Below are positions 8,541 through 53,803 of a stretch of DNA of 64,000 nt, piece by piece. Below the pieces are notes generated by a model. It did no database searches, was not told where the DNA came from, and saw nothing but the letters and a program-made list of their open reading frames with translations. This stretch comes from Leptospiraceae bacterium (lineage in GTDB: Bacteria; Spirochaetota; Leptospiria; Leptospirales; Leptospiraceae), in assembly GCA_024233835.1 (NCBI GenBank), contig JACKPC010000001.1, positions 1,349,442-1,413,441 on the forward strand, given 5' to 3'. The position numbers and the translations under genes were made by a program. Each line of letters begins with the position of its first letter. The stretch's first letter is position 1.

Positions 8541-10230
8541 TATTTTTATCCTCCTCTTTATCCCGGATTATAAATAGGTCTGTAAATTCTGTATAAGTCA
8601 GGGAGAGAGAATTCAGGGCTTTAAGTTCTTCTGAGTCCATATCCCGGACAAGGACAGCAAGCCGCCATTCGGAAGCTGTATCAACTTCTGCAAAAAGAAG
8701 ATCCCTGCCACCAAGACCCAATTTGGCCTTAGCCGAATCTGAATCAATTTCGAGATGAAAAGCCCTGTCGGTTTTATCTTTTTCTTTTTTAAAGGTAAAG
8801 GAGTCCATAGTTTTAAGACCAAATTTTGTATCATACAAACTTACCCTTTCTCCTACTGTTTCGATAATGAATCTTGGTTTATCTTTTTCGAAAAAGCAAA
8901 AATACAGGTTCTCTTCTTTTTCCATGAAAGGAAAGGCTGCTTCCAATTTAAGAGAAGCCGGGGGAAAAGGCTTGGAGAAAACTCCATTCCAGCCGGAACT
9001 TTCTCTCTCTTTTTTTCGTTTAAATAAAAGACCACCCCCAAGTTTAGGTTCCAATGAACCATTACCCGAAACTGTCCAGAAATCCTGTGCCTCTTCACCC
9101 ACAGCATCTTTCAAATAAAAGGGAAAAGAAATATAAGAAGAATCCTTGGCTTTGAGTTCCAGACTCCATTTAAAAAGAGAAGAGTTCTTCTTTTCTTTTA
9201 GATCTTTCAGTATGTTTATATTATAGCGAGCCGGAGGTAAATTGTTTAAGTATAGAGGGCTTTCTCCCTGAATTTCACTGTTCCAGGCGACTTTCAAGCC
9301 GGAAGGATAGGTACTGATACCCATAGAAGAAAGTTTGAAATCGTCTTTCCATTCGATGAAAAGATTCAGAGAATCGCCAGCTCGAACAGTAACTTCTCTT
9401 TCTACTTCTTCCGCACCTGTTTTGTAGATTTTTAGTTTATGAGTACCTTCTAAAATGGGAAAGTCTTTTACCGGAAGCTTTCCGGCTTCCTTACCATCGA
9501 GATAAAATTCACAGTCACTCGATACAGTATTAATTTGTAAAACACCGGATATACTTTTTAAAAGCAGGGTTTTTAGTTCTTCCTTAGAAGCTTGCCTGGA
9601 AAAAGAAAACTCAGGAACTTTTTCTTCACTTAAAAGACGGTATCTGTCTTTCGAGCGAACGAGTTCAATACGTTCAAATGGTTTCTTGTCTTCTTCGGTA
9701 TCTTTTAAAACCTCCAGCTTATATTCGAGACTTCCGAAGAGACTTGCATTTACCGGGTCTTTCAAGTCCTGTTTGATCGTATAACTTATCTTATCAGTTT
9801 TTTCTTTCTCCGGTTTGTCTATTAGGATATTCGTATATATATAAGCATCGATATTTTTTTTCATACTGGCCTTTTGTAAACTATCCCTGTCTACCCAGAC
9901 CCGGAAAGGGAGTTCCACTTCTTGAAAGGAAGAATTTTTCCAGAGGAGTTTGAGTTCCTGTTCAATGATGCGTTTATCCAGGTCAGAAAATCCTTCCGGA
10001 AACAAAATGGGAGCAAAGGTATAAACCGGGATACCGCTGCTTTTTTTTCGCTCTTTATAATCTTTTCCACCGGAACCTTTATTTCCCGTGATTAAGCCCT
10101 CACGGGCCTTTTCGAGAACCGGAAGGGCCGGTATTTGAAAGGTTTTCCCGTTTATCCTCTGAACCGAAGAGCAGGAGAAAAACATACAAAAAAGCCCTGT
10201 AACTGAGATATAGCTGGTAATGGATTTCAT
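8524..10230 (-). CDS. Hypothetical lipoprotein.
   Basis: Signal peptide plus lipobox (LFCMFFSCSS). Its stop overlaps the start of the TPR gene, so they are likely an operon. Confidence 0.6.
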   Translation of the reverse strand: MKSITSYISVTGLFCMFFSCSSVQRINGKTFQIPALPVLEKAREGLITGNKGSGGKDYKERKKSSGIPVYTFAPILFPEGFSDLDKRIIEQELKLLWKNSSFQEVELPFRVWVDRDSLQKASMKKNIDAYIYTNILIDKPEKEKTDKISYTIKQDLKDPVNASLFGSLEYKLEVLKDTEEDKKPFERIELVRSKDRYRLLSEEKVPEFSFSRQASKEELKTLLLKSISGVLQINTVSSDCEFYLDGKEAGKLPVKDFPILEGTHKLKIYKTGAEEVEREVTVRAGDSLNLFIEWKDDFKLSSMGISTYPSGLKVAWNSEIQGESPLYLNNLPPARYNINILKDLKEKKNSSLFKWSLELKAKDSSYISFPFYLKDAVGEEAQDFWTVSGNGSLEPKLGGGLLFKRKKERESSGWNGVFSKPFPPASLKLEAAFPFMEKEENLYFCFFEKDKPRFIIETVGERVSLYDTKFGLKTMDSFTFKKEKDKTDRAFHLEIDSDSAKAKLGLGGRDLLFAEVDTASEWRLAVLVRDMDSEELKALNSLSLTYTEFTDLFIIRDKEEDKNNDKED

Positions 10231-10551
10231 AGACTCTTAACACACACTTTTCAAAATAGAGCCTTAAGAGACAAGCCCTAAATCAGGAGCTTTATCGTAT
10301 GAGTGGATACCGGGCTTCTGGCAGTTTCGGTGAGTGCATTTGTCAGAGCCGAAGCATAAATCGGCAGTCAGAGGGGCATTTTCTGCTTTGTTTCTGTCTT
10401 TTTCTGTATAGTTTTAGCATTGAAGGGCTTACTTTTTTGAGGTTGAAAAAAAGTAAACTTAATAGAGCTTAGTAACAGAATCTTTCCAGTTAATTAATTA
10501 GGTGGCTATATTGAATAGATTATTTTCTTACCGTAATAAAGGAATACAATC

Positions 10552-12108
10552 ATGACTAGTATCCAACAACGTGCAGAACTTCAGCGGCAAATCTGGCAAA
10601 TTGCTAACGATGTTCGAGGCTCAGTAGATGGCTGGGACTTTAAACAGTATGTCTTAGGCACGCTGTTTTATCGCTTTATAAGTGAAAATTTCGCAAACTA
10701 CATTGAAGGCGGAGATGAAAGTATTCACTATGCTGAGCTTTCTGATGATGTTATTACCGACGATATTAAAGACGATGCCATCAAAACGAAAGGCTATTTC
10801 ATCTATCCAAGTCAACTTTTTGAGAAGATAGTCGCGGGTGCGAATAATAACGAGAACCTAAACACGGATTTAGCCACTATATTTGCAGCAATAGAAAACT
10901 CCGCAAATGGCTATCCATCAGAAATGGACATCAAAGGTCTATTCGCTGATTTCGACACTACCAGTAACCGTCTGGGAAATACTGTTAAAGATAAAAACAC
11001 CCGCTTGGCTTCCGTATTAAAAGGAGTGGCAGGGCTAAAGTTTGGTCAATTTCAGGATAATCAAATTGACTTATTTGGCGATGCTTATGAATTTTTAATC
11101 TCAAACTATGCCGCCAATGCCGGTAAATCAGGCGGTGAGTTTTTTACTCCGCAAAACGTTTCCAAGCTGATTGCCCAACTTGCCATGCACAAGCAAGCCA
11201 GTGTCAACAAAATTTATGACCCTGCCTGTGGTTCCGGCTCCTTACTTTTGCAGGCGAAAAAGCATTTTGATAATCATATCATTGAAGATGGTTTCTTTGG
11301 TCAGGAAATTAACCATACCACTTACAACCTTGCACGCATGAATATGTTTTTGCATAATATCAATTACGATAAATTTAATATTCAACTGGGCAATACCCTA
11401 ATCGATCCGCATTTTAAGGATGAAAAACCCTTCGATGCCATAGTCTCGAATCCGCCTTATTCGGTGAAATGGATAGGTTCGGATGATCCAACCCTGATTA
11501 ACGATGAGCGCTTTGCCCCCGCCGGCGTTTTGGCGCCCAAGTCCAAAGCCGATTTTGCCTTTGTGCTCCATGCTTTGAGCTACCTTTCCAGCAAAGGTCG
11601 TGCTGCCATTGTTTGTTTCCCCGGTATTTTTTACCGCGGTGGTGCCGAACAGAAAATTCGTCAATATCTGATAGACAATAACTATGTGGAAACCGTGATC
11701 TCTCTGGCACCCAACTTATTTTTTGGTACTACCATCGCTGTGAATATCCTTGTGCTTTCCAAGCACAAAACCAACACCAACACCCAGTTTATAGATGCGA
11801 GCGGTGAAGATTTTTATAAAAAGGAAACCAATAATAATATATTAACCGATCACCATATTCAAAAGATTATGGATATGTTTGATAGCAAAAACGATGTGGA
11901 AAATATAGCCAAATTGATTCCTTTTGAGACTATTGCCGCTAATGATTATAATCTATCGGTGAGTAGCTATGTAGAAGCCAAAGATAACCGTGAGGTGATT
12001 GATATTACCAGGCTGAATGCTGAACTGAAAACCACCGTCAAAAAGATAGACCAGCTGCGAAAGGATATTGATGCAATTGTCGCCGAGATTGAGGGGAATG
12101 AAGCATGA
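10552..12108 (+). CDS. hsdM: Type I restriction-modification methyltransferase subunit HsdM (N6-adenine MTase).
   Basis: AdoMet motif I ([10 protein letters not shown]) and catalytic motif IV (NPPY) in the order typical of HsdM. The N-terminus matches the HsdM_N style ([31 protein letters not shown]). Confidence 0.9.
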
Positions 12109-13103
12109 GTAATGTCATTATTTACACAACTGATGATGGCTCCACAAAAATCGATTTGCGTCTGGAAGACGGCACGGTCTGGCTGTCGCAACTGCAAATT
12201 GCCGAACTGTTTCAAACCAGCAAGCAAAATATCAGCAAACACATAAAGGCTATTTATGATGATCATGAGCTGTATGAGCAGGCAACTGTCAACCAGGAGT
12301 TGACAGTTCAAAAAGAAGGCAAACGTGAGGTTTCACGCGGCATTATCTTGTATAATCTCGATATGATTTTGGCTATCGGTTATCGTGTGCGTTCGCTGCG
12401 CGGTGTTCAATTCAGGCGCTATGCCTCCACGGTATTGAAAGAGTATCTCGAAAAGGGTTTTGCTCTCAACGATGAACGCTTGAAAAACCTCGGCGGCGGG
12501 AACTACTGGAAAGAGTTGCTCGACCGGATTCGCGATATTCGCTCCAGCGAAAAAGTGATGTACCGCCAGGTATTGGAACTCTACGCCACCGCCACTGATT
12601 ACGACCCCCAGAGCGAAGAGAGCCTGACGTTTTTCAAAATCGTACAAAACAAACTGCACTACGCTGCCCATGGTCATACTGCCAGCGAAGTCATCTACCT
12701 GCGGGTTGATAGCGACAAACCTTTTGCCGGTTTAAGCAACTTCAAGGGGAGCCAGCCAACACAAGCCGAAGCCATGATCGCCAAAAACTACCTCAGTGAG
12801 CAGGAATTACGGATACTGAACAACCTTGTCTCCGCCTATTTCGATTTGGCCGAATTAAACGCCATCGAAGAACGTGAAATGCGCATGGTCGATTATGTGC
12901 GTGAGTTGGACAATATCCTCAGTTCAACCGGACGTAAATTGCTCGACAATGCCGGCAACGTCTCTCATGATGCTGCCAAAGAAAAAGCAAAACTGGAATA
13001 TAAGAAATACAAGGCCAGAACGCTGGAAAACGTAGAAAAAGACTACCTGAAAACTATTGCCGCATTAGAAAAGCAGGCCAAAAAAGAGAGCCGTAAAAAA
13101 TGA
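12105..13103 (+). CDS. rhuM: RhuM-family protein (Virulence_RhuM) embedded in the Type I R-M operon.
   Basis: The N-terminal segment ([51 protein letters not shown]...[23 protein letters not shown]) matches the conserved RhuM signature as I recall it. Its ATGA overlaps with the hsdM stop and with the hsdS start. Confidence 0.75.
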
Positions 13104-14368
13104 GTAATTTAAGCTTTATGGAAAAGCTGCTGGATGGGGTTGAAGTGGAATGGAAGCAATTGGGAGAAGTAGGAGAATTTATTCGTGGTAACGGAATACT
13201 TAAAAAGGACTTAATTGATACTGGTTTTCCAGCCATTCATTATGGTCAACTTCATACTAAATATGGCTTATCAGCTGATAAAGCTTTTACTTGTGTGTCT
13301 CATGAGTTTGCTAAAAAATTAAGAAAAGCCATTAACAATGATCTATTGCTTGCAACAACATCAGAGAATGATGAGGATGTAGTAAAACCACTAGCATGGC
13401 TTGGAGATGAAGTTGCTATTTCTGGTGATATGATGTTGTTTAGACATGAACAAAATGTAAAGTATTTAGCCTATTATTTTGAAACAGAAGCATTCCAAGA
13501 ACAAAAAAGGAAGTACATTAATGGGGCGAAAGTTCGTAGGGTTTCGAAAGATAGTTTAATTAAAATTCAAATCCCCATTCCCTGTCCCGATAATCCCGAA
13601 AAATCTCTCAAAATCCAAGCTGAAATCGTCCGCATTCTGGACGCGTTCACCGAACTTACCACCGAACTTACCACCGAACTTACCACCGAACTTACCTTGC
13701 GGAAAAAACAATACAACTACTATCGAGAGCAGCTATTTTCTTTTGATAAAGAGGACGTTATACACTTACCAATGGGACAAGAGGGTGTTGGTGATTTTAT
13801 TCGAGGTAGTGGGTTACTGAAAAAAGATTTTACCAAAACGGGTGTTGGCTGTATTCATTATGGTCAGATTCACACATATTACGGTACATATACAGATCAA
13901 ACTAAAACATTTGTTTCAGAAGATTTTGCTAAAAAAGCTCGCAGAGCAAAATCAGGCGATTTGGTTATAGCCACAACAAGTGAGAACGACGATGATGTTT
14001 GTAAAGCCGTCGCTTGGATTGGTGAAGGAGAGATTGCCGTTAGTAGTGATGCATGTTTCTATAGGCATACTTTGAACCCCAAATATGTGTCTTATTTTTT
14101 CCAAACAGAGCAGTTTAATAAACAAAAAAGACAGTATATTACGGGTGCAAAAGTAAGGCGAGTAAACGCTGATAATTTAGCCAAAATACTAATCCCCATA
14201 CCTTCACCAGATGAACAAGCCCGAATAGTCACTATCCTCGACAAATTTGAAGCCCTCACCAACTCTATCACCGAAGGCTTACCCCGCGAAATTGATTTAC
14301 GACAAAAGCAATATGAGTATTACCGCGATTTACTGTTGAGTTTCCCCAAGCCGGAGGTAAATGCCTAG
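13100..14368 (+). CDS. hsdS: Type I R-M specificity subunit HsdS with two homologous target-recognition domains.
   Basis: Two TRD-like halves are separated by the conserved central helix ([16 protein letters not shown]) and followed by the distal conserved helix ([16 protein letters not shown]). A TELT x4 repeat lies in the central conserved region. Confidence 0.85.
13648..13695 (+). repeat. 12-bp x4 tandem repeat (caccgaacttac) encoding [16 protein letters not shown] in the HsdS central conserved region.
   Basis: Read directly in the sequence. It is in frame and sits between the two TRDs. Confidence 0.9.
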
Positions 14369-15482
14369 TATGAGTCAGACGTTAATAAAAATTGCACAAA
14401 AGTTAAAAACAAACAACAAAAAAGTGCAGCTCATCTATGCTTTTAACGGCACGGGGAAAACACGCCTTTCGCGGGAATTTAAGCAGTTAATCGCTCCTAC
14501 AAGTGATGGTGATGAAGCAGAACTTTCACCGAGAAAAATCCTGTATTATAATGCTTTTACAGAAGACCTATTTTATTGGGACAACGATTTAAGACAGGAT
14601 ACAGAACCCAAATTAAAGATTCAGCCAAATTCCTTTACCGATTGGATACTGAAAGATCAGGGACAAGATCGAAATATTATTACAAACTTCCAACGTTATA
14701 CAAATGATAAACTAACACCTCTTTTTATTGATGACTTTACTGCGGTGAGTTTTTCTCTTGAACGCGGAGATGATGCAAGTTCAGGAAATCTAAAAATCTC
14801 CAAAGGAGAAGAAAGCGTCTTTATCTGGAGTGTTTTTTTTACCTTACTCGAACAGGTCATTAGTATTTTAAATGTTGCCGAACCCATTGAACGGGAGACA
14901 GATCAGTTCAATCAATTGGAATACATTTTTGTTGATGATCCTGTAAGCTCTTTAGATGAAAACCATTTGATTGAATTGGCGGTACAATTAGGAGCTTTGA
15001 TTACATCCAGTAGCTCAACTTTAAAGTTTATAATCACGACTCATAATCCGCTTTTCTATAATGTATTATTCAATGAGCTAAAGACGAAAGGGTGTTATAT
15101 GCTATTAAAAAATGAGGATGGAACGTTTCAGTTAGATGAAAAACATGGGGATTCAAATAAGAGTTTTTCTTATCACTTATATTTAAAACAGACCATCGAG
15201 GAAGCCATTGAAGGAAATAAAATTCAAAGATACCATTTTATGTTATTACGTAATTTATATGAAAAAACAGCAAGCTTTCTTGGCTACCCCAGATGGTCTG
15301 AATTATTGCCGGGTGACAAGCAAGCTTATTTAAATCGCATCATTCAGTTTACCAGCCATCGCACCTTATCGAATGAAGAAGTTGCCGAACCAAGCGAACC
15401 GGAAAAGCAAACCGTTAAGTTTTTACTAAATAATTTAATTAGTAACTATGGCTTTTGGCAGCAAGGAGAAAATAATGGTTAA
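14361..15482 (+). CDS. PrrC-like anticodon-nuclease candidate (N-terminal ABC-type ATPase, C-terminal nuclease-like region).
   Basis: Walker A ([11 protein letters not shown]) and Walker B / D-loop ([14 protein letters not shown]). The C-terminal LLRNLYE...FTSHR gives Arg, then Glu at +4, then His at +36. This is the same spacing as the PrrC Arg320/Glu324/His356 ACNase triad as I recall it. The position between hsdS and hsdR matches the prrA-prrB-prrC-prrD arrangement. The start may instead be the ATG at 14370, which has a GGAGGT RBS. Confidence 0.55.
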
Positions 15483-18400
15483 ATCCACAAAGCCCATCGT
15501 AGAATCAAAAAACTTTATCGTCTTAGACAAATACACAAGTGAATGGCAGGTCAATCAAAGCTACCAGAGTGAAAGTGATTTAGAAAGGGAGCTGCTCGAA
15601 GATCTAAAAAATCAGGGCTATGAAATTCTAACAGAAATAAACTCTACCGAAAAAATGCTGGCAAATGTACGGAAACAACTACAAAACTTAAATCATGTTC
15701 AATTTTCAGAAAGTGAATGGTCACGCTTTGTAGAACAATATTTAGATAAGCCGAGCGATACCATAGTCGAAAAAACCCGAAAAATTCATGATGACTATAT
15801 TTATGACTTTGTCTTCGATGATGGCCATATCGAAAACATTTATCTTATAGATAAAAAAAACATCTTACGCAATCACTGCCAGGTGATAAACCAGTTCGAA
15901 CAAACCGGAATGCAGACAAATCGCTATGACGTCACGATCCTAATTAATGGATTGCCACTGGTGCAAATTGAGCTAAAAAAACGTGGTGTTGCCATTCGGG
16001 AAGCCTTCAACCAGGTACACCGTTACAGCAAAGAGAGCTTTAACAGCGAACATTCATTATATAAGTATTTACAAATATTTATAATTTCTAATGGTACAGA
16101 TACTCGCTATTTTGCGAATACAACCAAGCGCGATAAAAACAGTTTTGATTTTACCATGAATTGGGCAAAGGCTGATAATACATTAATTAAAGACTTAAAA
16201 GACTTTACAGCCACGTTTTTTCAAAAAAACACTTTATTGAATGTCCTCATCCAGTATTCGGTATTTGATGTAAACAATACCCTACTTGTTATGCGTCCCT
16301 ACCAAATTGCAGCTACCGAGCGTATATTATGGAAGATCAAAAGTTCCTACCAGGCTAAAAACTGGAGTAAGACAGAAAGTGGTGGCTTTATCTGGCATAC
16401 CACAGGCTCAGGAAAAACCCTAACCAGTTTTAAAGCAGCACGGTTAGCTACAGAATTAGATTTTATTGATAAAGTGTTCTTTGTCGTTGATCGTAAAGAC
16501 CTCGATTACCAGACGATGAAAGAATACCAGCGTTTTTCACCGGATAGTGTGAATGGTTCGGAAAGTACCGCAGGATTAAAACGTAATCTGGAAAAAGAAG
16601 ACAATAAAATCATTGTTACCACGATTCAAAAACTCAACAACTTAATGAAAAGTGAAAATGATTTACCTATTTATCAGAAACAAGTTGTGTTTATATTTGA
16701 TGAAGCACACCGTAGCCAATTTGGTGAAGCACAAAAAAATCTAAAGAAAAAGTTCAAAAAGTACTACCAATTTGGCTTTACCGGTACGCCGATTTTTCCA
16801 CAAAATGCCTTGGGTGCCGATACCACTGCCAGTGTATTTGGTAGAGAACTACATTCTTACGTCATCACCGATGCCATTCGGGATGAAAAAGTATTGAAGT
16901 TTAAAGTGGACTATAATGATGTGCGCCCAAAGTTCAAAACGATTGAAACAGAACAAGATGAGAAGAAGCTAAGTGCTGCCGAAAACAAACAAGCATTTTT
17001 GCACCCCGAACGTATTCGTGAGATTTCTCGATACATATTAAATCACTTCAAACAAAAAACACACCGACTCCACACGGGTAGCAAAGGTTTTAATGCGATG
17101 TTTGCGGTGAGTAGTGTGGATGCAGCCAAGTCATACTATGAAGCTTTTAAAAAATCCCAAAAGGAAGCTGAAAGAAATAAACCTCTCATCATTGCTACAA
17201 TCTTTTCCTTTGTTGCCAATGAAGAACAGGATGCCGTCGGAGAAATATCCGATGAAAGCTTTGAAGTCTCGGCTATGGAAAGCAGTGCAAAAGAATTTTT
17301 ACGTGCAGCAATTGACGATTATAACACAGCATTCAAAACCAATTTTACTGTAGATAGCAATGGCTTTCAAAACTATTATCGCGACCTTGCGAAGCGTGTT
17401 AAAAATATGGAAGTAGATCTGCTGATTGTTGTAGGAATGTTTTTAACAGGCTTTGATGCCCCCACATTGAATACATTATTTGTGGATAAAAACCTACGTT
17501 ACCACGGCTTAATACAAGCCTATTCCCGTACCAATCGAATTTATGATGCAACAAAGACCTTTGGAAATATCGTTACCTTTCGGGATTTGGAAAAAGCTAC
17601 AATTGATGCAATTACTTTATTTGGTGATAAAAATACGAAAAATATTGTATTAGAAAAAAGCTATAAAGAATATATGGAAGGTTTTACTGATTTGGTAACC
17701 GGAGAAGCTCGTCGTGGTTATTTGGAAGTAGTATCAGAACTGCAAAGACGTTTTCCAAAACCTGATGAGATCATTAAAGAACAGGATAAAAAAGACTTTG
17801 TAAAATTATTCGGTGAATATTTGCGCGTTGAAAATGTATTACAAAACTACGATGAATTTGCCGGACTAAAAGCCCTGCAAAATGTAGATATGGATGATCC
17901 GGAAGCTGTTGAAGAATTTAAAGCTAAATATTATTTGAACGATGAAGACTTAAATACGATGCAAACGATAGAGGTACCGGCAGAAAGAACGATCCAAGAT
18001 TATCGTTCCGTTTATAACGATACTCGCGATTGGTTACGTCGCCAAAGAGCCGGAGACGAAAAAGAACCTTCGAGCATTGATTGGGATGATGTGGTTTTTG
18101 AAGTGGACTTGCTTAAATCCCAAGAAATCAATCTTGATTACATTCTGGAATTAATTTTTGAACATAACAAGAAAAACAAAAATAAAGCGGAGTTAATTGA
18201 AGAAGTTCGTCGTTTGATTCGAGCCAGTTTAGGTAATCGGGCTAAAGAAAGTTTAATTGTTGATTTTATAAATCAAACAAACCTGGATGAAATTATAGAT
18301 AAGGCAAGTATTATTGAAGCTTTCTTTTCCTTTGCACAGGCAGAACAAAAACGGGAAGCGGATGAGCTTATTCGTTCAGAAAATCTAAATGAAGATGCGG

Positions 18401-18582
18401 CTAAACGTTATATCCTAACATCATTGAAAAGAGAATATGCCAGCGAACATGGAACCGAGCTAAACTCCACTCTCCCCAAGATGAGTCCACTCAATCCCCA
18501 ATACAAAACCAAAAAGCAAAATGTTTTTAAGAAAATATCCGATTTTGTAGAAAAGTTTAAGGGTGTAGGTGGCAAATTATGA
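15475..18582 (+). CDS. hsdR: Type I restriction enzyme R subunit HsdR (SF2 helicase/translocase).
   Basis: Helicase motif I ([10 protein letters not shown]) and motif II DEAH box ([10 protein letters not shown]), with a ~1040-aa length. I chose the ATG at 15475 with the GGAGAAAATAATG RBS, which overlaps the upstream stop. The ORF track offers an earlier in-frame start at 15448. Confidence 0.9.
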
Positions 18583-18610
18583 AGCACTATATTGATATTG
18601 AGAGATTGCT

Positions 18611-18928
18611 GTGAAAAAGAAAAAAGTTCCGAATCCACATGGAAAGTTGGGTAGTCCAAAGCATCGAGAAAAAGTGAATGAAGTGGCAAAAGATATAGAA
18701 AAAAGAGGCTTTCTTGCAAGGCTAGAATATTTCATCCAATTAGTTAGTGGTAAAAAAAGGTATGTGGATGTAGCAGCTCTCGATTATAATCTGGATGAAA
18801 AAGAGTTTCACCAAATTGGAAAGCAAACTAAATCTGGGATACCAGTTAAAAGAGAAAGAGATGCAATAGAGGAAGTATACCAAGCAAAAGGAATTAAACC
18901 TCAATTTCATCCTTATAACAAGGAATAA
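18611..18928 (+). CDS. Hypothetical small basic protein (105 aa) with a GTG start and no Met.
   Basis: The ORF opens immediately after an in-frame stop, and the only available start is GTG at 18611. The N-terminus is Lys-rich (MKKKKVPNPHGKLGSPKHREK). The downstream ORF begins 4 nt after its stop. Confidence 0.35.
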   Translation: MKKKKVPNPHGKLGSPKHREKVNEVAKDIEKRGFLARLEYFIQLVSGKKRYVDVAALDYNLDEKEFHQIGKQTKSGIPVKRERDAIEEVYQAKGIKPQFHPYNKE

Positions 18929-18931
18929 ACA

Positions 18932-19459
18932 ATGAAAGGAAAACAAATAAACTTTTTCTTGACTCCGGAAGATGTAAAAGAATTGGATAAATATTTATCT
19001 GAAAATGAATTCGTGATTATTCCCCAGCCATTGTACAAAAATAAAATAGAGCTTATAGATTCGCTCCTATATTCTCCAGACAATGGAGAGAAAATACGTC
19101 CTGAAAAATATATAGTTTCTAAAAATGATTTGGAAAATATAGAGTTATCATACATTGATACACATAGGTATCATTTGATTGGATTGAATGATAAAAATCC
19201 TGCAATCGAATTCACATATATATCAAAAGCTCCGGAAGATAAAAAAATAAAAAGAGGCAGACTTTATTATACAGATGTATTTTATGATAATAGTGAACTG
19301 AGAAAAAAAAACGAACGTTTTACTGAATCAGCAAAAAATCTTTTTACATGGTTTAAAAAAATGTTTAATGATACAACTTTATCCGGTTATAAAGGGTATC
19401 AAATTTCCGCAAAAGCGGCGGAATGGAAGAAAAGCACAGGTGGAATATTAGAAATTTAA
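18932..19459 (+). CDS. Hypothetical protein (175 aa).
   Basis: ORF tightly coupled to the upstream small ORF. No recognisable motifs. Confidence 0.4.
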   Translation: MKGKQINFFLTPEDVKELDKYLSENEFVIIPQPLYKNKIELIDSLLYSPDNGEKIRPEKYIVSKNDLENIELSYIDTHRYHLIGLNDKNPAIEFTYISKAPEDKKIKRGRLYYTDVFYDNSELRKKNERFTESAKNLFTWFKKMFNDTTLSGYKGYQISAKAAEWKKSTGGILEI

Positions 19460-19492
19460 AATAATAGGGAATATATATACAGGAATACAGAA

Positions 19493-20305
19493 ATGGCTTA
19501 TAAAGACTTATATTACCAATTATTAAAAAAAGAGAATTTAGAAATTCTAAAAAACATTTTTGAAAAAGAAGATATTTTAAAATTTCTTAAAGTAAAAAAA
19601 GTTGAGTTACTTACACAAAATGAAATGCCATATATACTTTTTACCAGTGATTTCGACTACTATCATGCTGCTCAATATTTTGGTCTAATAATTGATATTA
19701 GAAATATTATTAAGGATTATGAACAAGAAAACTTTTATTTACCGGTTATAAGCTTTTCTGACAGTCACCCGGAAGTTATTCAAAACTTAATAAACCAAGA
19801 AATTTCGATCCAACATGAACTAATTCATATTAAAGATTTTTTTAATATCTTAGATAAAAATCCAGATTATACTGGAGACTTAATGAGATATGGTCTTTTC
19901 TTCGAAGTAAAGAATGAGGATCTTGAAAAATCTATTGATTTTGAAGTAAGAAAATTATTTTTAATTGAACCTAATGGATTAACCCATGATTATAATAATA
20001 ATGAACGTTTGATATATGATCAGTTTATGGGACGATTGATGAAATATTCATGCAGCACTTTAGAAGAATATCTGCAAATGAAAATGCTTACTTATATAGA
20101 TGAGATTAAATCGTTATTCAAGAATAAATTTAAAAATGAAAATGAAAGAATAGAAACTGAATTTGAAAAAAGTATAAACAAGTATGGAACAGGAATCTTT
20201 AATGATAATCCATATCAAAATTATAAATCTCTTAAAGAAGGATATTCTTCAAAGTTATTAAGTTACACTATATCTTCGATGAAAGAAGATAGTCATGGAA
20301 GATGA
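19493..20305 (+). CDS. Hypothetical protein with an HExxH motif (possible Zn-metallopeptidase-like).
   Basis: 270-aa ORF containing QHELIHIKD (HELIH). Confidence 0.4.
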   Translation: MAYKDLYYQLLKKENLEILKNIFEKEDILKFLKVKKVELLTQNEMPYILFTSDFDYYHAAQYFGLIIDIRNIIKDYEQENFYLPVISFSDSHPEVIQNLINQEISIQHELIHIKDFFNILDKNPDYTGDLMRYGLFFEVKNEDLEKSIDFEVRKLFLIEPNGLTHDYNNNERLIYDQFMGRLMKYSCSTLEEYLQMKMLTYIDEIKSLFKNKFKNENERIETEFEKSINKYGTGIFNDNPYQNYKSLKEGYSSKLLSYTISSMKEDSHGR

Positions 20306-21074: not shown

Positions 21075-22874
21075 ATGAGTTCTATTATGATAAAGTTTCC
21101 CTACGGTATCATGGACTTTGATAAAATTATTACAGAAGCTTATTTCTATCAGGATAGGACAGCCTTTATAGAGAAATGCGAAAACTCGAACAGCACCCTT
21201 TTCTGTGTTCGACCAAGGCGTATGGGAAAAACTCTCTGGCTCGATACCCTGGCCAGTTATTACGATATTCTCAAAAAAAACCGTTTTGAGGACTTGTTCG
21301 GAAATCTTTATATTGGGAAGCACCCAACGCCCAGGCGAAACTCTTATCTTATCCTGAGGCTTGATTTTTCGAAGATACAACCGGGCAAAACAGTAGAAGA
21401 GATTGAGAGTAGTTTTAATGATTATATTTACAGAACAATTAAGAAGTTTTCAGAAGATTACAGAGATTTTATTGAATCAGATAAATTAGATCTATATAAA
21501 GATAGCTGCACTGGCTCTCTCGATAGTTTATGTAATTACGTCGAATCATCCGGCCACAAGTTGTATGTTCTAATAGATGAGTATGATAATTTTACCAACG
21601 AACTTATCAGCACCAATAGGTCGAAAGACTATTCGGATCTGGTTACAGGGGATGGCTTTCTAAAATCCTTCTTCAAAGTTCTGAAAGCCGGAAACATAGG
21701 TGCCATTGACAGAACCTTTGTGACAGGAGTTACTCCTATCACTCTAACCGATCTTTCCAGTGCCTATAATATTGCTACCCACATCACTTTTAAAGAAGAG
21801 TTTAATTCCTTGATGGGTTTTACGGAAGAGGAAGTGGAAGCCATGCTCGAAAGGGCCTTAGAAGAAATTGGCCTGATAGCTAAAAAAGAAGAAATTCTTT
21901 CTCAGATGAGATACTATTATGATGGCTATATTTTTCATGAGGAAAGCGAAGAGCATATTTATAACCCGACCCTGACCTTGTTCTATCTTCAGGCTCTATT
22001 AAAAGAACGTAAAATTCCTAAAAAGTTTTTTGATAAGAACCTTGATATGGACATCAATAAGTTGGAGCACATTACAAAGCTAAGCTCCGTGCATGACAAA
22101 GTATTTGCTCTTTTAGAAAATGAAGAAAAGGTAAGCATTTCACATATAGTCGAAGAATTTAAACTGAAAGAACTCCTTACTATGGACGAACAGGCGGATA
22201 ACTTTCTCTGGTCGTATTTGTTTTATCATGGCATCTTAACCTTTGCTGGAACAGATGCTTTTAATATTCTTCTGAAAATTCCTAATATTGTTTCTCGCCG
22301 TTTTTATTATGATAGAATTCGTGCAGCCTGCTTTCCTCCAAAGCTGGATGCCAACCAGATTCACAAATCTTTCTTCATAGATCTAAATCTTTCTGACTTA
22401 CAAACCTTTTTAGAAAAAACGGTACTGCCGTATCTATCCAACCGTGACTACATTCAGGCCAATGAACTTTCTATGAAAATAATGTTTCTCTCTCTCATGA
22501 TGCGGGAAGACCTGTATATCATAGACAGCGAAAAGGAAATCTTACGTGGCTATTGTGACCTTTTCTACCTGGGTCGCGGAGATACTCGAAAGAAATATGG
22601 TTTGAAAGATATATTAATCGAGTTCAAGTTTATTAAACTATCAGAATTGGAAGTCACACAGAAAGAAATAAAAGAACTTTCTTATGAAGAACTGGAAAAC
22701 CTTCCTCTAATTCAGGCAAAACTGAAAGAAGCTAATGAACAACTATCCATCTACAAAGAACGTTTGGAGAATAGATTTCTTAACCATAATCCCTTTTTTA
22801 AAGATATGAGTGATTTTGAAATACACCCCTTAAGTATTGTGTTTATTGGTTTTGACAGGGTAGTAGTGAAATAA
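21075..22874 (+). CDS. AAA-ATPase-like / PD-(D/E)XK nuclease-fold protein (DUF1703/PDDEXK_9-type), paralog copy 1.
   Basis: N-terminal block FYQDRTAFIEK...LFCVRPRRMGKTLWLDTLASYYD, cf. the RPRRFGKS motif of Pfam AAA-ATPase_like as I recall it. The C-terminal D...E-x-K signature is CDLFY...ILIEFKF. It is 85-99% identical to the five downstream copies. Confidence 0.8.
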   Translation: MSSIMIKFPYGIMDFDKIITEAYFYQDRTAFIEKCENSNSTLFCVRPRRMGKTLWLDTLASYYDILKKNRFEDLFGNLYIGKHPTPRRNSYLILRLDFSKIQPGKTVEEIESSFNDYIYRTIKKFSEDYRDFIESDKLDLYKDSCTGSLDSLCNYVESSGHKLYVLIDEYDNFTNELISTNRSKDYSDLVTGDGFLKSFFKVLKAGNIGAIDRTFVTGVTPITLTDLSSAYNIATHITFKEEFNSLMGFTEEEVEAMLERALEEIGLIAKKEEILSQMRYYYDGYIFHEESEEHIYNPTLTLFYLQALLKERKIPKKFFDKNLDMDINKLEHITKLSSVHDKVFALLENEEKVSISHIVEEFKLKELLTMDEQADNFLWSYLFYHGILTFAGTDAFNILLKIPNIVSRRFYYDRIRAACFPPKLDANQIHKSFFIDLNLSDLQTFLEKTVLPYLSNRDYIQANELSMKIMFLSLMMREDLYIIDSEKEILRGYCDLFYLGRGDTRKKYGLKDILIEFKFIKLSELEVTQKEIKELSYEELENLPLIQAKLKEANEQLSIYKERLENRFLNHNPFFKDMSDFEIHPLSIVFIGFDRVVVK

Positions 22875-46413: not shown

Positions 46414-48219
46414 ATGAGTTCTATTATGATAAAGTTTCCCTACGGTATCATGGATTTTTCTGACATAATTACAGAAGCTTATTTCTATCAGGACAGGACG
46501 GCCTTTATAGAGAAATGTGAAAATACAGCCAAGACTCTCTTCTGTGTTCGACCAAGGCGTATGGGAAAGACTCTCTGGCTCGATACCCTGGCCAGTTATT
46601 ACGACATTCTCAAAAAAGACCGTTTTGATGACTTGTTCGGAAGTCTTTATATCGGGAAAAACCCAACACCCAGGCGAAACTCTTATCTTATCCTGAGGCT
46701 CGATTTTTCGAAGATTCAACCGGGCAAAACAGTAGAAGAAATCGAGAGTAGTTTTAATGATTATATAACAAATATTACTCGTGAGTTTTTGATAAATTAT
46801 AAAGATTTCCTGATTGATTATTCAATTGATTTCAGTTCCAAAAAGGCAAATCATTCTCTGGATCAACTTTTAAGCTCTGTAAAACTATCCGGTCACAAGT
46901 TATATGTTCTAATAGATGAGTATGATAATTTTACCAACGAACTCATCAGCACCAACAGGTCGAAAGACTATTCGGATCTGGTTACAGGGGATGGCTTTCT
47001 GAAATCCTTCTTCAAAGTTCTGAAAGCCGGTAACATAGGTGCTATTGATAGAACCTTTGTGACAGGAGTTACGCCCATCACTCTAACTGACCTTTCGAGT
47101 GCCTATAATATTGCTACCCACATCACTTTTAAAGAAGAGTTTAATTCCTTATTGGGTTTTACGGAAGAGGAAGTAGAAGCCATGCTCGAAAGGGTCTTAG
47201 AAGAAATTGATCTGATGGCTAAAAAAGAAGAAATTCTTTCTCAGATGAGATACTATTATGATGGCTATATTTTTCATGAGGAAAGTGAGGAGCATATTTA
47301 TAACCCGACCCTGACCTTGTTTTATCTTCAGGCCCTATTAAAAGAACGTAAAATTCCTAAAAAGTTTTTTGATAAGAACCTCGATATGGACATCAATAAG
47401 TTGGAGCACATTACAAAGCTAAGTTCCGTGCATGACAAAGTATTTGCTCTTTTAGAAAACGAGGAAAAGGTAAGCATTTCACATATAGTAGAAGAATTTA
47501 AACTGAAAGAACTCCTTACTATGGATGAACAGGCGGATAACTTTCTCTGGTCGTATTTGTTTTATCATGGCATCTTAACCTTTGGTGGAATAGATAGAAC
47601 AAGGGTCCAATTAAAAATACCGAATACAGTATCCAGACATTTCTATTATGATAGAATTCGTTATAGCATTTTGCCGAAGAAATTAGATATATCTGAAATG
47701 CAGGAGAAGTTTTTTCTGGATTTAAATCTTTCTGAATTACAATCCTTTTTAGAAAAAACGGTACTGCCTTATTTATCTAACCGTGACTACATTCAGGCCA
47801 ATGAACTGTCTATGAAAATAATGTTTCTCTCTCTCATGATGCGGGATGACCTGTATATCATAGACAGTGAAAAAGAAATCTTACGTGGCTATTGCGACCT
47901 TTTCTACCTCGGTCGCGGAGATACTCGAAAGAAATATGGTTTAAAAGATATATTAATCGAGTTCAAATTTATTAAACTCTCAGAATTGGAAGTCACACAG
48001 AAAGAAATAAAAGAACTTTCTTATGAAGAACTGGAAAACCTTCCACTAATTCAGACAAAACTGAAAGAAGCCAGAGAACAACTATCCATTTACAAAGAAC
48101 GTTTGGAGAAGAGATTTCTTAACCATAATCCCTTTTTCAAAGATATGAGTGATTTTAAAATTCACCCCTTAAGTATTGTGTTTATTGGTTTTGACAGGGT
48201 AGTAGTAAAACCCGCTTGA
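46414..48219 (+). CDS. AAA-ATPase-like / PD-(D/E)XK protein, paralog copy 2.
   Basis: Same family signatures as copy 1. Mosaic with module variants B, X and Q (see findings). Confidence 0.8.
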   Translation: MSSIMIKFPYGIMDFSDIITEAYFYQDRTAFIEKCENTAKTLFCVRPRRMGKTLWLDTLASYYDILKKDRFDDLFGSLYIGKNPTPRRNSYLILRLDFSKIQPGKTVEEIESSFNDYITNITREFLINYKDFLIDYSIDFSSKKANHSLDQLLSSVKLSGHKLYVLIDEYDNFTNELISTNRSKDYSDLVTGDGFLKSFFKVLKAGNIGAIDRTFVTGVTPITLTDLSSAYNIATHITFKEEFNSLLGFTEEEVEAMLERVLEEIDLMAKKEEILSQMRYYYDGYIFHEESEEHIYNPTLTLFYLQALLKERKIPKKFFDKNLDMDINKLEHITKLSSVHDKVFALLENEEKVSISHIVEEFKLKELLTMDEQADNFLWSYLFYHGILTFGGIDRTRVQLKIPNTVSRHFYYDRIRYSILPKKLDISEMQEKFFLDLNLSELQSFLEKTVLPYLSNRDYIQANELSMKIMFLSLMMRDDLYIIDSEKEILRGYCDLFYLGRGDTRKKYGLKDILIEFKFIKLSELEVTQKEIKELSYEELENLPLIQTKLKEAREQLSIYKERLEKRFLNHNPFFKDMSDFKIHPLSIVFIGFDRVVVKPA

Positions 48220-48241
48220 CTTACTGAATATAAACCTTGAA

Positions 48242-50047
48242 ATGAGTTCTATTATGATAAAGTTTCCCTACGGTATCATGGATTTTTCTGACATAATCAC
48301 AGAAGCTTATTTCTATCAGGACAGGACGGCCTTTATAGAGAAATGCGAAAATACAGCCAAGACTCTCTTCTGTGTTCGACCAAGGCGTATGGGAAAAACT
48401 CTCTGGCTCGATACCCTGGCCAGTTATTACGACATTCTCAAAAAAGACCGTTTTGATGACTTGTTCGGAAGTCTTTATATCGGGAAAAACCCAACACCCA
48501 GGCGAAACTCTTATCTTATCCTGAGGCTCGATTTTTCGAAGATTCAACCGGGCAAAACAGTAGAAGAAATCGAGAGTAGTTTTAATGATTATATAACAAA
48601 TATTACTCGTGAGTTTTTGATAAATTATAAAGATTTCCTGATTGATTATTCAATTGATTTCAGTTCCAAAAAGGCAAATCATTCTCTGGATCAACTTTTA
48701 AGCTCTGTAAAACTATCCGGTCACAAGTTATATGTTCTAATAGATGAGTATGATAATTTTACCAACGAACTCATCAGCACCAACAGGTCGAAAGACTATT
48801 CGGATCTGGTTACAGGGGATGGCTTTCTGAAATCCTTCTTCAAAGTTCTGAAAGCCGGAAACATAGGTGCTATTGATAGAACCTTTGTGACAGGAGTTAC
48901 GCCCATCACTCTAACTGACCTTTCGAGTGCCTATAATATTGCTACCCACATCACTTTTAAAGAAGAGTTTAATTCCTTATTGGGTTTTACGGAAGAGGAA
49001 GTAGAAGCCATGCTCGAAAGGGTCTTAGAAGAAATTGATCTGATGGCTAAAAAAGAAGAAATTCTTTCTCAGATGAGATACTATTATGATGGCTATATTT
49101 TTCATGAGGAAAGCGAAGAGCATATTTATAACCCGACCCTGACCTTGTTTTATCTTCAGGCCCTATTAAAAGAACGTAAAATTCCTAAAAAGTTTTTTGA
49201 TAAGAACCTCGATATGGACATCAATAAGTTGGAGCACATTACAAAGCTAAGTTCCGTGCATGACAAAGTATTTGCTCTTTTAGAAAACGAGGAAAAGGTA
49301 AGCATTTCACATATAGTAGAAGAATTTAAACTGAAAGAACTCCTTACTATGGATGAACAGGCGGATAACTTTCTCTGGTCGTATTTGTTTTATCATGGCA
49401 TCTTAACCTTTGCTGGAGTAGATGCTTTTAATATTATTCTGAAAATTCCTAATATTGTTTCTCGTCGTTTTTATTATGATAGAATTCGTGCAGCCTGTTT
49501 TCCTCCGAAGCTGGATGCCAATCAGATTCACAAATCTTTCTTCATAGATCTAAACCTGTCTGAATTACAAACCTTTTTAGAGAAAACGGTATTACCTTAC
49601 CTATCCAACCGTGACTATATCCAGGCCAATGAACTTTCTATGAAAATAATGTTTCTCTCTCTCATGATGCGGGATGACCTGTATATCATAGACAGCGAAA
49701 AGGAAATCTTACGTGGTTATTGTGACCTTTTCTACCTCGGTCGCGGAGATACTCGAAAGAAATATGGTTTAAAAGATATATTAATCGAGTTCAAATTTAT
49801 TAAACTCTCAGAATTGGAAGTCACACAGAAAGAAATAAAAGAACTTTCTTATGAAGAACTGGAAAACCTTCCTCTAATTCAGGCAAAACTGAAAGAAGCC
49901 AAAGAACAGCTATCCATCTACAAAGAACGTTTGGAGAAGAGATTTCTTAACCATAATCCCTTTTTTAAAGATATGAGTGATTTTGAAATTCACCCCTTAA
50001 GTATTGTGTTCATTGGTTTTGACAGGGTAGTAGTAAAACCCGCTTGA
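48242..50047 (+). CDS. AAA-ATPase-like / PD-(D/E)XK protein, paralog copy 3.
   Basis: Nearly identical to copy 2 except for the third variable module (P). Confidence 0.8.
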   Translation: MSSIMIKFPYGIMDFSDIITEAYFYQDRTAFIEKCENTAKTLFCVRPRRMGKTLWLDTLASYYDILKKDRFDDLFGSLYIGKNPTPRRNSYLILRLDFSKIQPGKTVEEIESSFNDYITNITREFLINYKDFLIDYSIDFSSKKANHSLDQLLSSVKLSGHKLYVLIDEYDNFTNELISTNRSKDYSDLVTGDGFLKSFFKVLKAGNIGAIDRTFVTGVTPITLTDLSSAYNIATHITFKEEFNSLLGFTEEEVEAMLERVLEEIDLMAKKEEILSQMRYYYDGYIFHEESEEHIYNPTLTLFYLQALLKERKIPKKFFDKNLDMDINKLEHITKLSSVHDKVFALLENEEKVSISHIVEEFKLKELLTMDEQADNFLWSYLFYHGILTFAGVDAFNIILKIPNIVSRRFYYDRIRAACFPPKLDANQIHKSFFIDLNLSELQTFLEKTVLPYLSNRDYIQANELSMKIMFLSLMMRDDLYIIDSEKEILRGYCDLFYLGRGDTRKKYGLKDILIEFKFIKLSELEVTQKEIKELSYEELENLPLIQAKLKEAKEQLSIYKERLEKRFLNHNPFFKDMSDFEIHPLSIVFIGFDRVVVKPA

Positions 50048-50069
50048 CTTACTGAATATAAACCTTGAA

Positions 50070-51875
50070 ATGAGTTCTATTATGATAAAGTTTCCCTACG
50101 GTATCATGGATTTTTCTGACATAATCACAGAAGGTTATTTCTATCAGGATAGGACGGCCTTTATAGAGAAATGCGAAAATACAGCCAAGACTCTCTTCTG
50201 TGTTCGGCCAAGGCGCATGGGAAAGACTCTCTGGCTCGATACCCTGGCCAGTTATTACGATATTCTCAAAAAAGACCGTTTTGAGGACTTGTTCGGAAAT
50301 CTTCACGTAGGGAAACATCCAACATCAAGGCGAAACTCTTATCTTATCCTGAGGCTCGATTTTTCGAAGATCCAACCGGGCAAAACAGTAGAAGAAATCG
50401 AGAGTAGTTTTAATGATTATATTTACAGAACAATTAAGAAGTTTTCAGAAGATTACAGAGATTTTATTGAATCAGATAAATTAGATCTATATAAAGATAG
50501 CTGTACAGGTTCTCTCGATAGTTTATGTAATTACGTCGAATCATCCGGCCACAAGTTATATGTTCTAATAGATGAGTATGATAATTTTACCAACGAACTC
50601 ATCAGCACCAACAGGTCGAAAGACTATTCGGACTTAGTTACAGGGGATGGCTTTCTAAAATCCTTCTTCAAAGTTCTGAAAGCCGGTAACATAGGTGCCA
50701 TTGATAGAACCTTTGTGACAGGAGTCACGCCCATCACTCTAACCGATCTTTCGAGTGCCTATAATATCGCTACCCACATCACTTTTAAAGAAGAGTTTAA
50801 TTCCTTATTGGGTTTTACGAAAGAGGAAGTAGAAGCCATGCTCGAAATGGTCTTAGAAGAAATTGGCCTGATAACCAAGAAAAAAGAAATCTTATCTCTT
50901 ATGAAATATTATTATGACGGTTATACTTTTAGCAGAAGAGCTAAAGAGCATATTTACAATCCCACCCTGACCATGTATTTTCTGAATAATTTATTGGAGG
51001 AAAAAGATATACCACAACAACTTCTGGACAGGAACCTTGATATGGACATCAATAAGTTGGAGCACATTACAAAGCTAAGCTCCGTGCATAACAAGGTATT
51101 TGCTCTTTTAGAAAACGAGGAAAAGGTAAGCATTTCACATATAGTAGAAGAATTTAAACTGAAAGAACTCCTTACTATGGACGAACAGGCTGATAACTTT
51201 CTCTGGTCGTATTTGTTTTATCATGGCATCTTAACCTTTGGTGGAATAGATAGAACAAGGGTCCAATTAAAAATACCGAATACAGTCTCCAGACATTTCT
51301 ATTATGATAGAATTCGTTATAGTATCCTTCCGAAGAAACTAGATATATCTGAAATGCAGGAGAAGTTTTTTCTGGATTTAAATCTTTCTGAATTACAATC
51401 CTTTTTAGAAAAAACGGTACTGCCTTATTTATCTAACCGTGACTACATTCAGGCCAATGAACTGTCTATGAAAATAATGTTTCTCTCTCTCATGATGCGG
51501 GATGACCTGTATATCATAGACAGTGAAAAAGAAATCTTACGTGGTTATTGTGACCTTTTCTACCTCGGTCGCGGAGATACTCGAAAGAAATATGGTTTAA
51601 AAGATATATTAATCGAGTTCAAATTTATTAAACTCTCAGAATTGGAAGTCACACAGAAAGAAATAAAAGAACTTTCTTATGAAGAACTGGAAAACCTTCC
51701 TCTAATTCAGGCAAAACTGAAAGAAGCCAAAGAACAGCTATCCATCTACAAAGAACGTTTGGAGAAGAGATTTCTTAACCATAATCCCTTTTTCAAAGAT
51801 ATGAGTGATTTTAAAATTCACCCCTTAAGTATTGTGTTCATTGGTTTTGACAGGGTAGTAGTAAAACCCGCTTGA
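50070..51875 (+). CDS. AAA-ATPase-like / PD-(D/E)XK protein, paralog copy 4.
   Basis: Module variants A, Y and Q. Confidence 0.8.
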   Translation: MSSIMIKFPYGIMDFSDIITEGYFYQDRTAFIEKCENTAKTLFCVRPRRMGKTLWLDTLASYYDILKKDRFEDLFGNLHVGKHPTSRRNSYLILRLDFSKIQPGKTVEEIESSFNDYIYRTIKKFSEDYRDFIESDKLDLYKDSCTGSLDSLCNYVESSGHKLYVLIDEYDNFTNELISTNRSKDYSDLVTGDGFLKSFFKVLKAGNIGAIDRTFVTGVTPITLTDLSSAYNIATHITFKEEFNSLLGFTKEEVEAMLEMVLEEIGLITKKKEILSLMKYYYDGYTFSRRAKEHIYNPTLTMYFLNNLLEEKDIPQQLLDRNLDMDINKLEHITKLSSVHNKVFALLENEEKVSISHIVEEFKLKELLTMDEQADNFLWSYLFYHGILTFGGIDRTRVQLKIPNTVSRHFYYDRIRYSILPKKLDISEMQEKFFLDLNLSELQSFLEKTVLPYLSNRDYIQANELSMKIMFLSLMMRDDLYIIDSEKEILRGYCDLFYLGRGDTRKKYGLKDILIEFKFIKLSELEVTQKEIKELSYEELENLPLIQAKLKEAKEQLSIYKERLEKRFLNHNPFFKDMSDFKIHPLSIVFIGFDRVVVKPA

Positions 51876-51897
51876 CTTACTGAATATAAACCTTGAA

Positions 51898-53697: not shown

Positions 53698-53803
53698 AGG
53701 GAAGAGTTCGGAGAAGTGCTTATCAACTCTTGAAACCTGAAACCATCTTTTCTTTTTTTCAACACTTCCAAATCTACTTGACTCATAAAATCCAAAGGTT
53801 GAA

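Follow-up and report, generated by a model that had tools for sequence, protein, structure and literature searches.

Introduction

The anticodon nuclease PrrC of Escherichia coli (EcoPrrC) is encoded between the hsdS and hsdR genes of a type IC restriction-modification (R-M) operon, EcoprrI, in the order prrA-prrB-prrC-prrD. It joins an ABC-type NTPase N-domain to an HEPN-like RNase C-domain, and its described features include a family-specific 'PrrC box' at residues 68–94 and a triad of Arg320, Glu324 and His356, whose part in catalysis was indicated by mutagenesis and chemical rescue (PMC1484252), as well as the Lys-anticodon recognising peptide (LARP), of which D287, S288, F292 and Y294 are implicated in tRNA-Lys recognition. 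The RloC tRNases share the combination of an ABC ATPase N-domain with a C-terminal nuclease carrying conserved Arg, Glu and His, and an association of PrrC with RhuM and R-M genes was described in 2013 (Anantharaman et al., PMC3710099). According to published counts, 391 of 402 Leptospira interrogans genomes and about 3% of RefSeq genomes carry PrrC. Here we describe a prrC gene and its surrounding operon in a 64,000-nucleotide (nt) stretch of DNA from a Leptospiraceae bacterium (assembly GCA_024233835.1, contig JACKPC010000001.1), the whole of which we call the window.

A sequence-only reading had proposed a PrrC-like anticodon-nuclease candidate here, in a gene order, hsdM-(rhuM)-hsdS-ATPase gene-hsdR, that mirrors the E. 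coli prr locus. Our analysis supports both proposals, and it is highly likely that positions 14370–15482 encode a true member of the PrrC anticodon-nuclease family, within a type IC cassette of five translationally coupled genes, hsdM-rhuM-hsdS-prrC-hsdR. Judged by its sequence, the protein is an intact ortholog of EcoPrrC, with NTPase site, PrrC box, RNase site and LARP all in place, embedded in a type IC operon.

Profile and alignment evidence

The PADLOC hidden Markov model for PrrC matches the window protein with 500.5 bits (E=7e-151), residues 4–371 of the protein aligning with positions 18–352 of the 372 in the profile, while the runner-up model, PDC-S06, which belongs to ABC ATPase models of 700–860 residues, reaches 46 bits in the Walker B region only. 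BLASTP against the 396-residue E. coli 'anticodon nuclease' WP_032251799 gives 67% identity and 79% positives over the full length, with the two domains similarly conserved (171/239 identities in the N-domain, 96/131 in the C-domain). The resemblance to PrrC lies far beyond chance, and a coincidence of open reading frame (ORF) or motifs is rejected. WP_032251799 (locus L001) came from searching complete E. coli genomes at the DNA level, where annotated 'anticodon nuclease' genes lie between hsdS and hsdR, and we used it as the EcoPrrC prototype because all residue numbers in the EcoPrrC literature fit it: it carries H251, D287, S288, F292, Y294, H295, H315, R320, E324, K325, D341 and H356, with the LARP at 284–294.

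The ORF runs uninterrupted on the + strand from 14361 to 15482, and the sequence-only reading had counted 373 residues from its first ATG. The frame is real; the start most likely lies at ATG 14370, which gives a protein of 370 residues beginning MSQTL. Three observations favour this start: an identical database protein (P0001) begins there, the alignment with E. coli PrrC begins at that Met, and the start then follows the hsdS stop after a 1-nt gap, as in E. coli. A GGAGG at 14353–14357 sits merely 3 nt before the alternative ATG 14361. We accordingly place prrC at 14370–15482 on the + strand, identified by the PADLOC PrrC model, by Pfam AAA_13 and by its alignment with EcoPrrC.

An AlphaFold2 model of the protein, built from 62 sequences, has a mean predicted local distance difference test score (pLDDT) of 86. 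Its Foldseek matches are to SMC, Rad50, cohesin, PtuA and retron ABC-ATPase heads, which fits the earlier characterisation of the N-domain as Rad50/SbcC-like ABC NTPase (PMC3710099). Since the ABC head dominated the whole-protein search, the C-domain was modelled separately; the predicted C-domain resembles HEPN RNases, and the model points to an HEPN-type fold with the R-x4-6-H pattern present. A literature search found no cryo-EM structure of PrrC.

NTPase and nuclease motifs

The mutagenesis of Meineke et al. defines 33 essential residues of EcoPrrC, of which 30 are identical in the window protein. The N-domain keeps 17 of 18 (K46, T47, R48, K168, K171, D215, D216, S219, S220, D222, N224, H225, K245, T250, H251, N257 and E262), the remaining position being a D223 to E change, and the nuclease domain keeps six of eight (D276, H295, K299, H315, N321 and R349), with N352 replaced by Q and H297 by Y. 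The first two substitutions have been made in EcoPrrC, where D223E (PMC3025547, Table 1) and N352Q (Meineke et al.) both leave the enzyme toxic.

The motifs on which the sequence-only reading had leaned, Walker A AFNGTGKT, Walker B and LLRNLYE...FTSHR, are all present in the ORF. The P-loop AFNGTGKT (14439–14462, + strand, as are all features given below) corresponds to EcoPrrC A40–T47, including the essential K46 and T47; among 92 representatives of 50%-identity clusters the Lys is conserved in 89 and the Thr in 90. The 12-residue core of the PrrC box (14553–14588) is identical to that of EcoPrrC and keeps the essential E88, W93, D94 and N95; an 18-residue stretch of the box is the same in both proteins, and the box as a whole is essentially identical. 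An ABC signature-like motif, KISKGEES (14793–14816), matches EcoPrrC K168, S170 and K171, its Ser being invariant in all 92 representatives. Walker B, YIFVDD (14922–14939), runs into the D-loop PVSSLDENH, and together they (14922–14966) supply the equivalents of EcoPrrC D215, D216, S219, S220, D222, D223, N224 and H225, identical except for the D223 to E change. The switch or linchpin His (EcoPrrC H251; 15042–15044) is again invariant in 92/92.

In the C-domain, the 11-residue LARP equivalent (15141–15173) is identical to EcoPrrC 284–294 at ten positions; the single difference is Y285 to H, and D287, S288, F292 and Y294 are all kept. It includes an NK insertion typical of the EcoPrrC-like subgroup and found in only about 9–12 of the 92 representatives, and the window form of the LARP ranks second in frequency among the variants seen in 120 close homologues. 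The nuclease active-site region (15249–15359) holds R294 (15249–15251), E298 (15261–15263), R323 (15336–15338) and H330 (15357–15359); R294, N295, E298, R323, Q326 and H330 are equivalent to EcoPrrC R320, N321, E324, R349, N352 and H356, and an R-x6-H HEPN motif lies within the region. The triad R294/E298/H330, or R297/E301/H333 if residues are counted from ATG 14361, has the R-x3-E-x31-H spacing of EcoPrrC, which the sequence-only reading had given as that of Arg320/Glu324/His356, correctly according to PMC1484252.

This triad is conserved among orthologs. It is invariant in 63 diverse homologues reaching down to 32% identity and in a 27-sequence alignment of the C-domain, and present in 89–90 of the 92 cluster representatives, the remainder having gaps or, in one case, a Lys; the R-x3-E-x31-H spacing itself is identical in 114 of 120 close homologues.

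The type IC operon and its E. coli counterpart

Pfam and NCBIfam confirm the order hsdM-rhuM-hsdS-prrC-hsdR. The methyltransferase subunit gene hsdM (10552–12108), equivalent to prrA, is recognised by N6_Mtase (E=1.5e-118), HsdM_N and TIGR00497 (652.8 bits), and its stop overlaps the start of rhuM by 4 nt. The specificity subunit gene hsdS (13100–14368), equivalent to prrB, contains two Pfam Methylase_S stretches, corresponding to two target recognition domains (TRDs). Downstream of prrC, hsdR (15475–18582; TIGR00348, 690 bits), equivalent to prrD, encodes the type IC restriction/translocase subunit, in which Pfam finds HSDR_N, ResIII, SWI2_SNF2, a T1R_D3-like domain and EcoR124_C (PF12008, E=2.5e-74). 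Its start is most likely ATG 15475, preceded by a Shine-Dalgarno sequence, AAGGAGA, at 15463–15469, rather than the alternative ATG 15448. That the prrC stop (TAA, 15480–15482) overlaps the hsdR start had been noted from the letters alone; with ATG 15475 the overlap is 8 nt, ATGGTTAA, and in the E. coli locus L001, with the hsdR start at 9086 and the prrC end at 9093, it is again 8 nt. The five genes are thus tightly packed, with 4-nt overlaps, the 1-nt gap and the 8-nt overlap, a packing that points to translational coupling within one operon. A scan of 10100–19600 for sigma-70 promoters and terminators returned counts no higher than expected from shuffled sequence and is uninformative on operon structure.

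By sequence, this hsdMSR operon belongs to type IC and is a homologue of the E. coli prr locus. The type IC assignment follows from EcoR124_C in HsdR, from the closeness of HsdM and HsdR to EcoprrI-type subunits and from a TAEL-type 12-bp repeat in HsdS. HsdM is 85% identical to its counterpart in L001 and HsdR 79%, aligning from the first Met, while HsdS is 37% identical overall, its conserved regions aligning and its TRDs differing. The likeness to the prototype therefore extends through the two-domain plan, PrrC box, Walker A and B, signature-like motif, D-loop, linchpin His, triad spacing and LARP (10/11) of the protein, the placing of prrC between hsdS and hsdR with the same junction geometry, and the TAEL-type repeat in the central region of HsdS. 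Differences are that the window has rhuM between hsdM and hsdS, that its HsdS has other TRDs and four rather than three 4-residue repeats, that its PrrC differs at the four positions named above (H297, Y285, D223 and N352) besides a shorter N-terminus, and that its host is represented by a low-GC (guanine plus cytosine) Leptospiraceae-type metagenome-assembled genome (MAG) and is no enterobacterium.

E. coli also contains a second PrrC-like subfamily, of 414 residues (WP_061091424), likewise encoded between hsdS and hsdR, with the triad conserved and 53% identity to the window protein. Unlike the latter, which is clearly closer to EcoPrrC, it has extra inserts and a diverged LARP region (EQKTDS-PFSY), a sequence that suggests a different substrate. 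Its gene, at L002:7956–9200 (NZ_CP018991.1), is annotated merely 'AAA family ATPase'.

Proposed mechanism and alternative readings

Drawing each step from the E. coli prototype (PMC1484252, PMC3874165, PMC3710099), we propose that the window PrrC would be produced along with the R-M subunits and kept latent within their complex, the evidence for latency at this locus being the way its genes are arranged in the operon and coupled in translation. PrrC would be unmasked once a phage anti-restriction factor disabled the R-M complex, and the N-domain would relay the signal, GTP hydrolysis and dTTP binding licensing the C-domain to act. The C-domain would then cut tRNA-Lys 5' of the wobble base, upon which translation would halt and the infection abort. 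The E. coli trigger, the T4 Stp peptide, cannot be assumed for the window host because Stp is specific to E. coli and T4, and Stp itself is an unlikely trigger in a Leptospiraceae-type host.

Several points weigh against the assignment as a PrrC anticodon nuclease. Activity, substrate, latency and trigger are all assigned to the window protein by homology. Relative to EcoPrrC the protein is without about 16 N-terminal residues (EcoPrrC ~17–32) and a few short loops, and H297, essential in EcoPrrC, is a Tyr; Meineke et al. judged H297 unlikely to be catalytic, the toxic Streptococcus homologue SmuPrrC has Met there, and the position is variable across the family, with Tyr in 92 of 108 close homologues. 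LARP conservation is no guarantee of phenotype either, as NmePrrC, with a 10/11 LARP match, is yet non-toxic in yeast. Searches of PDB sequences, run both with the protein itself and with a profile of 63 sequences, turned up no structure of PrrC or RloC; the sole matches were a spurious kinesin-like one (E=0.005) and one in the Walker-B region of Rad50. Finally, no NCBIfam model matches the prrC product, and the identical protein P0001 is named only 'AAA family ATPase' at NCBI.

The alternative that survives best keeps the protein as a PrrC-family RNase but gives it another RNA target than EcoPrrC, such as a different tRNA, or an activation logic other than R-M inhibition, or both. Substrate specificity has been argued to vary among PrrC homologues (PMC1484252), and the Y285H change in the LARP, the Tyr at H297 and the different behaviour of NmePrrC in yeast could all be read in this way, as could a spirochaete-type host whose phages are unrelated to T4. 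Against this reading, the protein belongs to the EcoPrrC-like subgroup, sharing D-S-N-K-S-F-S-Y with its NK insertion, seen in about 10% of representatives, and all four residues implicated in tRNA-Lys recognition are identical; the locus architecture is identical to that of the prototype. We regard this alternative as improbable.

That the protein is instead an RloC-type, wobble nucleotide-excising tRNase is a far weaker proposition. The organisation into ABC ATPase and R/E/H nuclease is common to both families, and four homologues (P0060, P0075, P0080 and P0114) carry the name 'wobble nucleotide-excising tRNase' in JGI and NCBI records. PMC3458546 and PMC2610378, however, describe RloC as having a long Rad50-like coiled-coil/zinc-hook insert within its ATPase domain and as rarely linked to R-M genes, and RloC is without the LARP motif. 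None of this fits the window protein, which has 370 residues with a single Cys, and so no CXXC hook, shows no coiled-coil insert in the model, carries a LARP and is encoded within an R-M operon; its PADLOC scores are 500 bits for PrrC against 46 for the next model. Length, architecture and profile scores effectively refute an RloC identity, to which we give very little credence.

A catalytically dead or non-nuclease ABC/AAA ATPase that accompanies the type I R-M enzyme as an accessory subunit would suit the missing NCBIfam match, the name of P0001 and the fact that Pfam recognises only AAA_13 in the product. We reject it as exceedingly improbable: the residues for catalysis and for NTPase function are all intact, the triad does not vary across the family, conservation is as high in the C-domain as in the N-domain, and close homologues are named 'anticodon nuclease'.

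Homologues and distribution

The PrrC family to which we assign the window protein is large, with more than 8000 word-sharing matches, and among representatives at 50% identity 798 match at E≤0.001 and 190 at E≤1e-30. A genome scan recovered 80 related loci at 65–75% identity, from Pseudomonadota, Cyanobacteria, Chlorobi, Chloroflexota, Verrucomicrobia, Firmicutes, Actinobacteria and Spirochaetota, and in all 80, wherever the contig allows, the order hsdS-prrC-hsdR is kept. The whole cassette recurs across phyla at 65–87% protein identity, which indicates horizontal spread of the cassette as a unit. The window matches the MAG contig JAGQJM010000151 (GCA_020430645.1) at NCBI with 100% identity over 9.8 kb, and the identical protein P0001 is labelled 'Leptospiraceae bacterium' there. 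The prrC product also matches phrog_23661 of the PHROGs database (E=3.8e-170), a family labelled 'unknown function', and PrrC homologues therefore occur in phage or prophage genomes too.

Names in the databases are inconsistent, homologues about 74% identical to the window protein being called either 'anticodon nuclease' or 'wobble nucleotide-excising tRNase', the latter being the function of RloC. The arrangement has been described previously and opens no new question of mechanism; what the window contributes is one more well-preserved cassette of PrrC and type IC genes, from a low-GC genome of Leptospiraceae type, in a family already detected by standard defence-system finders. The practical value lies in annotation, given that the identical database protein is labelled as a mere AAA ATPase and that homologues are mislabelled as RloC-type, and in the horizontal spread noted above.

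A 12-nt repeat in hsdS

Within hsdS, positions 13648–13696 form a perfect 12-nt tandem repeat (CACCGAACTTAC, 4.1 copies; Tandem Repeats Finder score 98, 100% matches) that encodes (TELT)x4 in the central conserved, coiled-coil region of HsdS. In contigs of two other metagenome assemblies, 99.7–99.8% identical to the window in DNA, hsdS (L004:4138–5394 and L006:1774–3030) is otherwise the same but has three repeats, one fewer than the window. In EcoR124I and EcoR124II the corresponding TAEL repeat comes in two or three copies, and its copy number determines whether the recognition site has an N6 or an N7 gap; EcoprrI has three copies (PMC3874165). By analogy, the number of hsdS repeats here probably changes the length of the recognition-site gap, and one natural population probably carries gap-length alleles, with N8 predicted for the window and N7 for the three-repeat form. 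No natural type IC HsdS with four repeats beside a three-repeat form in one population appears in the papers we consulted.

RhuM as a probable passenger of the cassette

The gene between hsdM and hsdS (12105–13103) is of the rhuM family (Virulence_RhuM, E=5.2e-100; PADLOC PDC-S05, E=2.3e-150) and encodes a putative toxin or defence protein. A RhuM homologue is found in 17 of the 80 PrrC loci (among them L012, L017, L053, L025, L028 and L030), where it occupies one of three slots: between hsdM and hsdS in four, between prrC and hsdR in nine, and after hsdR in four. The window thus resembles the known cassettes in which one operon unites hsdMSR with genes for a PrrC-like ABC-HEPN protein and a RhuM-like one (PMC3710099; PDC-S05), and differs in that the prrC|hsdR slot is commoner than its own. 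The arrangement of the window also occurs in a Pelagicoccus locus (L012; RhuM 86% identical) and in a gammaproteobacterial MAG (L053; 83%).

The existence of three slots suggests modular, repeated insertion of a passenger gene, and RhuM probably rides in this cassette as an additional, independent effector. A joint role for R-M, PrrC and RhuM was proposed in 2013 on genomic grounds. We tentatively extend this to a three-layer modular unit, a proposal we hold to be possible but doubtful, in which one type IC R-M complex would guard two latent effectors, PrrC, directed at tRNA, and RhuM, while slippage of the 12-nt hsdS repeat would retune DNA specificity (N7/N8) and leave the masking of the effectors undisturbed.

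Other features of the window

GC content is mildly raised over hsdM and rhuM (0.40–0.44 against ~0.37–0.38), with no sharp island boundary, and a scan of the window for tRNA genes found none. Directly after hsdR, 18611–20305 holds three ORFs of 105, 175 and 270 residues in a markedly AT-rich stretch (GC ~0.30 against a background of 0.37). They have no Pfam or PHROG match, and in PADLOC the 175-residue ORF alone has a match, a weak one to PDC-M04B (E=0.0016); the island may carry these ORFs as additional cargo.

Six paralogs of about 600 residues, which combine AAA-ATPase_like (PF09820) with PDDEXK_9, a PD-(D/E)XK domain (PF08011), lie elsewhere in the window. Three of the six were scanned for domains, and the others are assigned by their near-identical length and spacing. 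One paralog (21075–22874) follows hsdR at a distance of about 2.5 kb, and the other five form a head-to-tail tandem array at 46414–55603.

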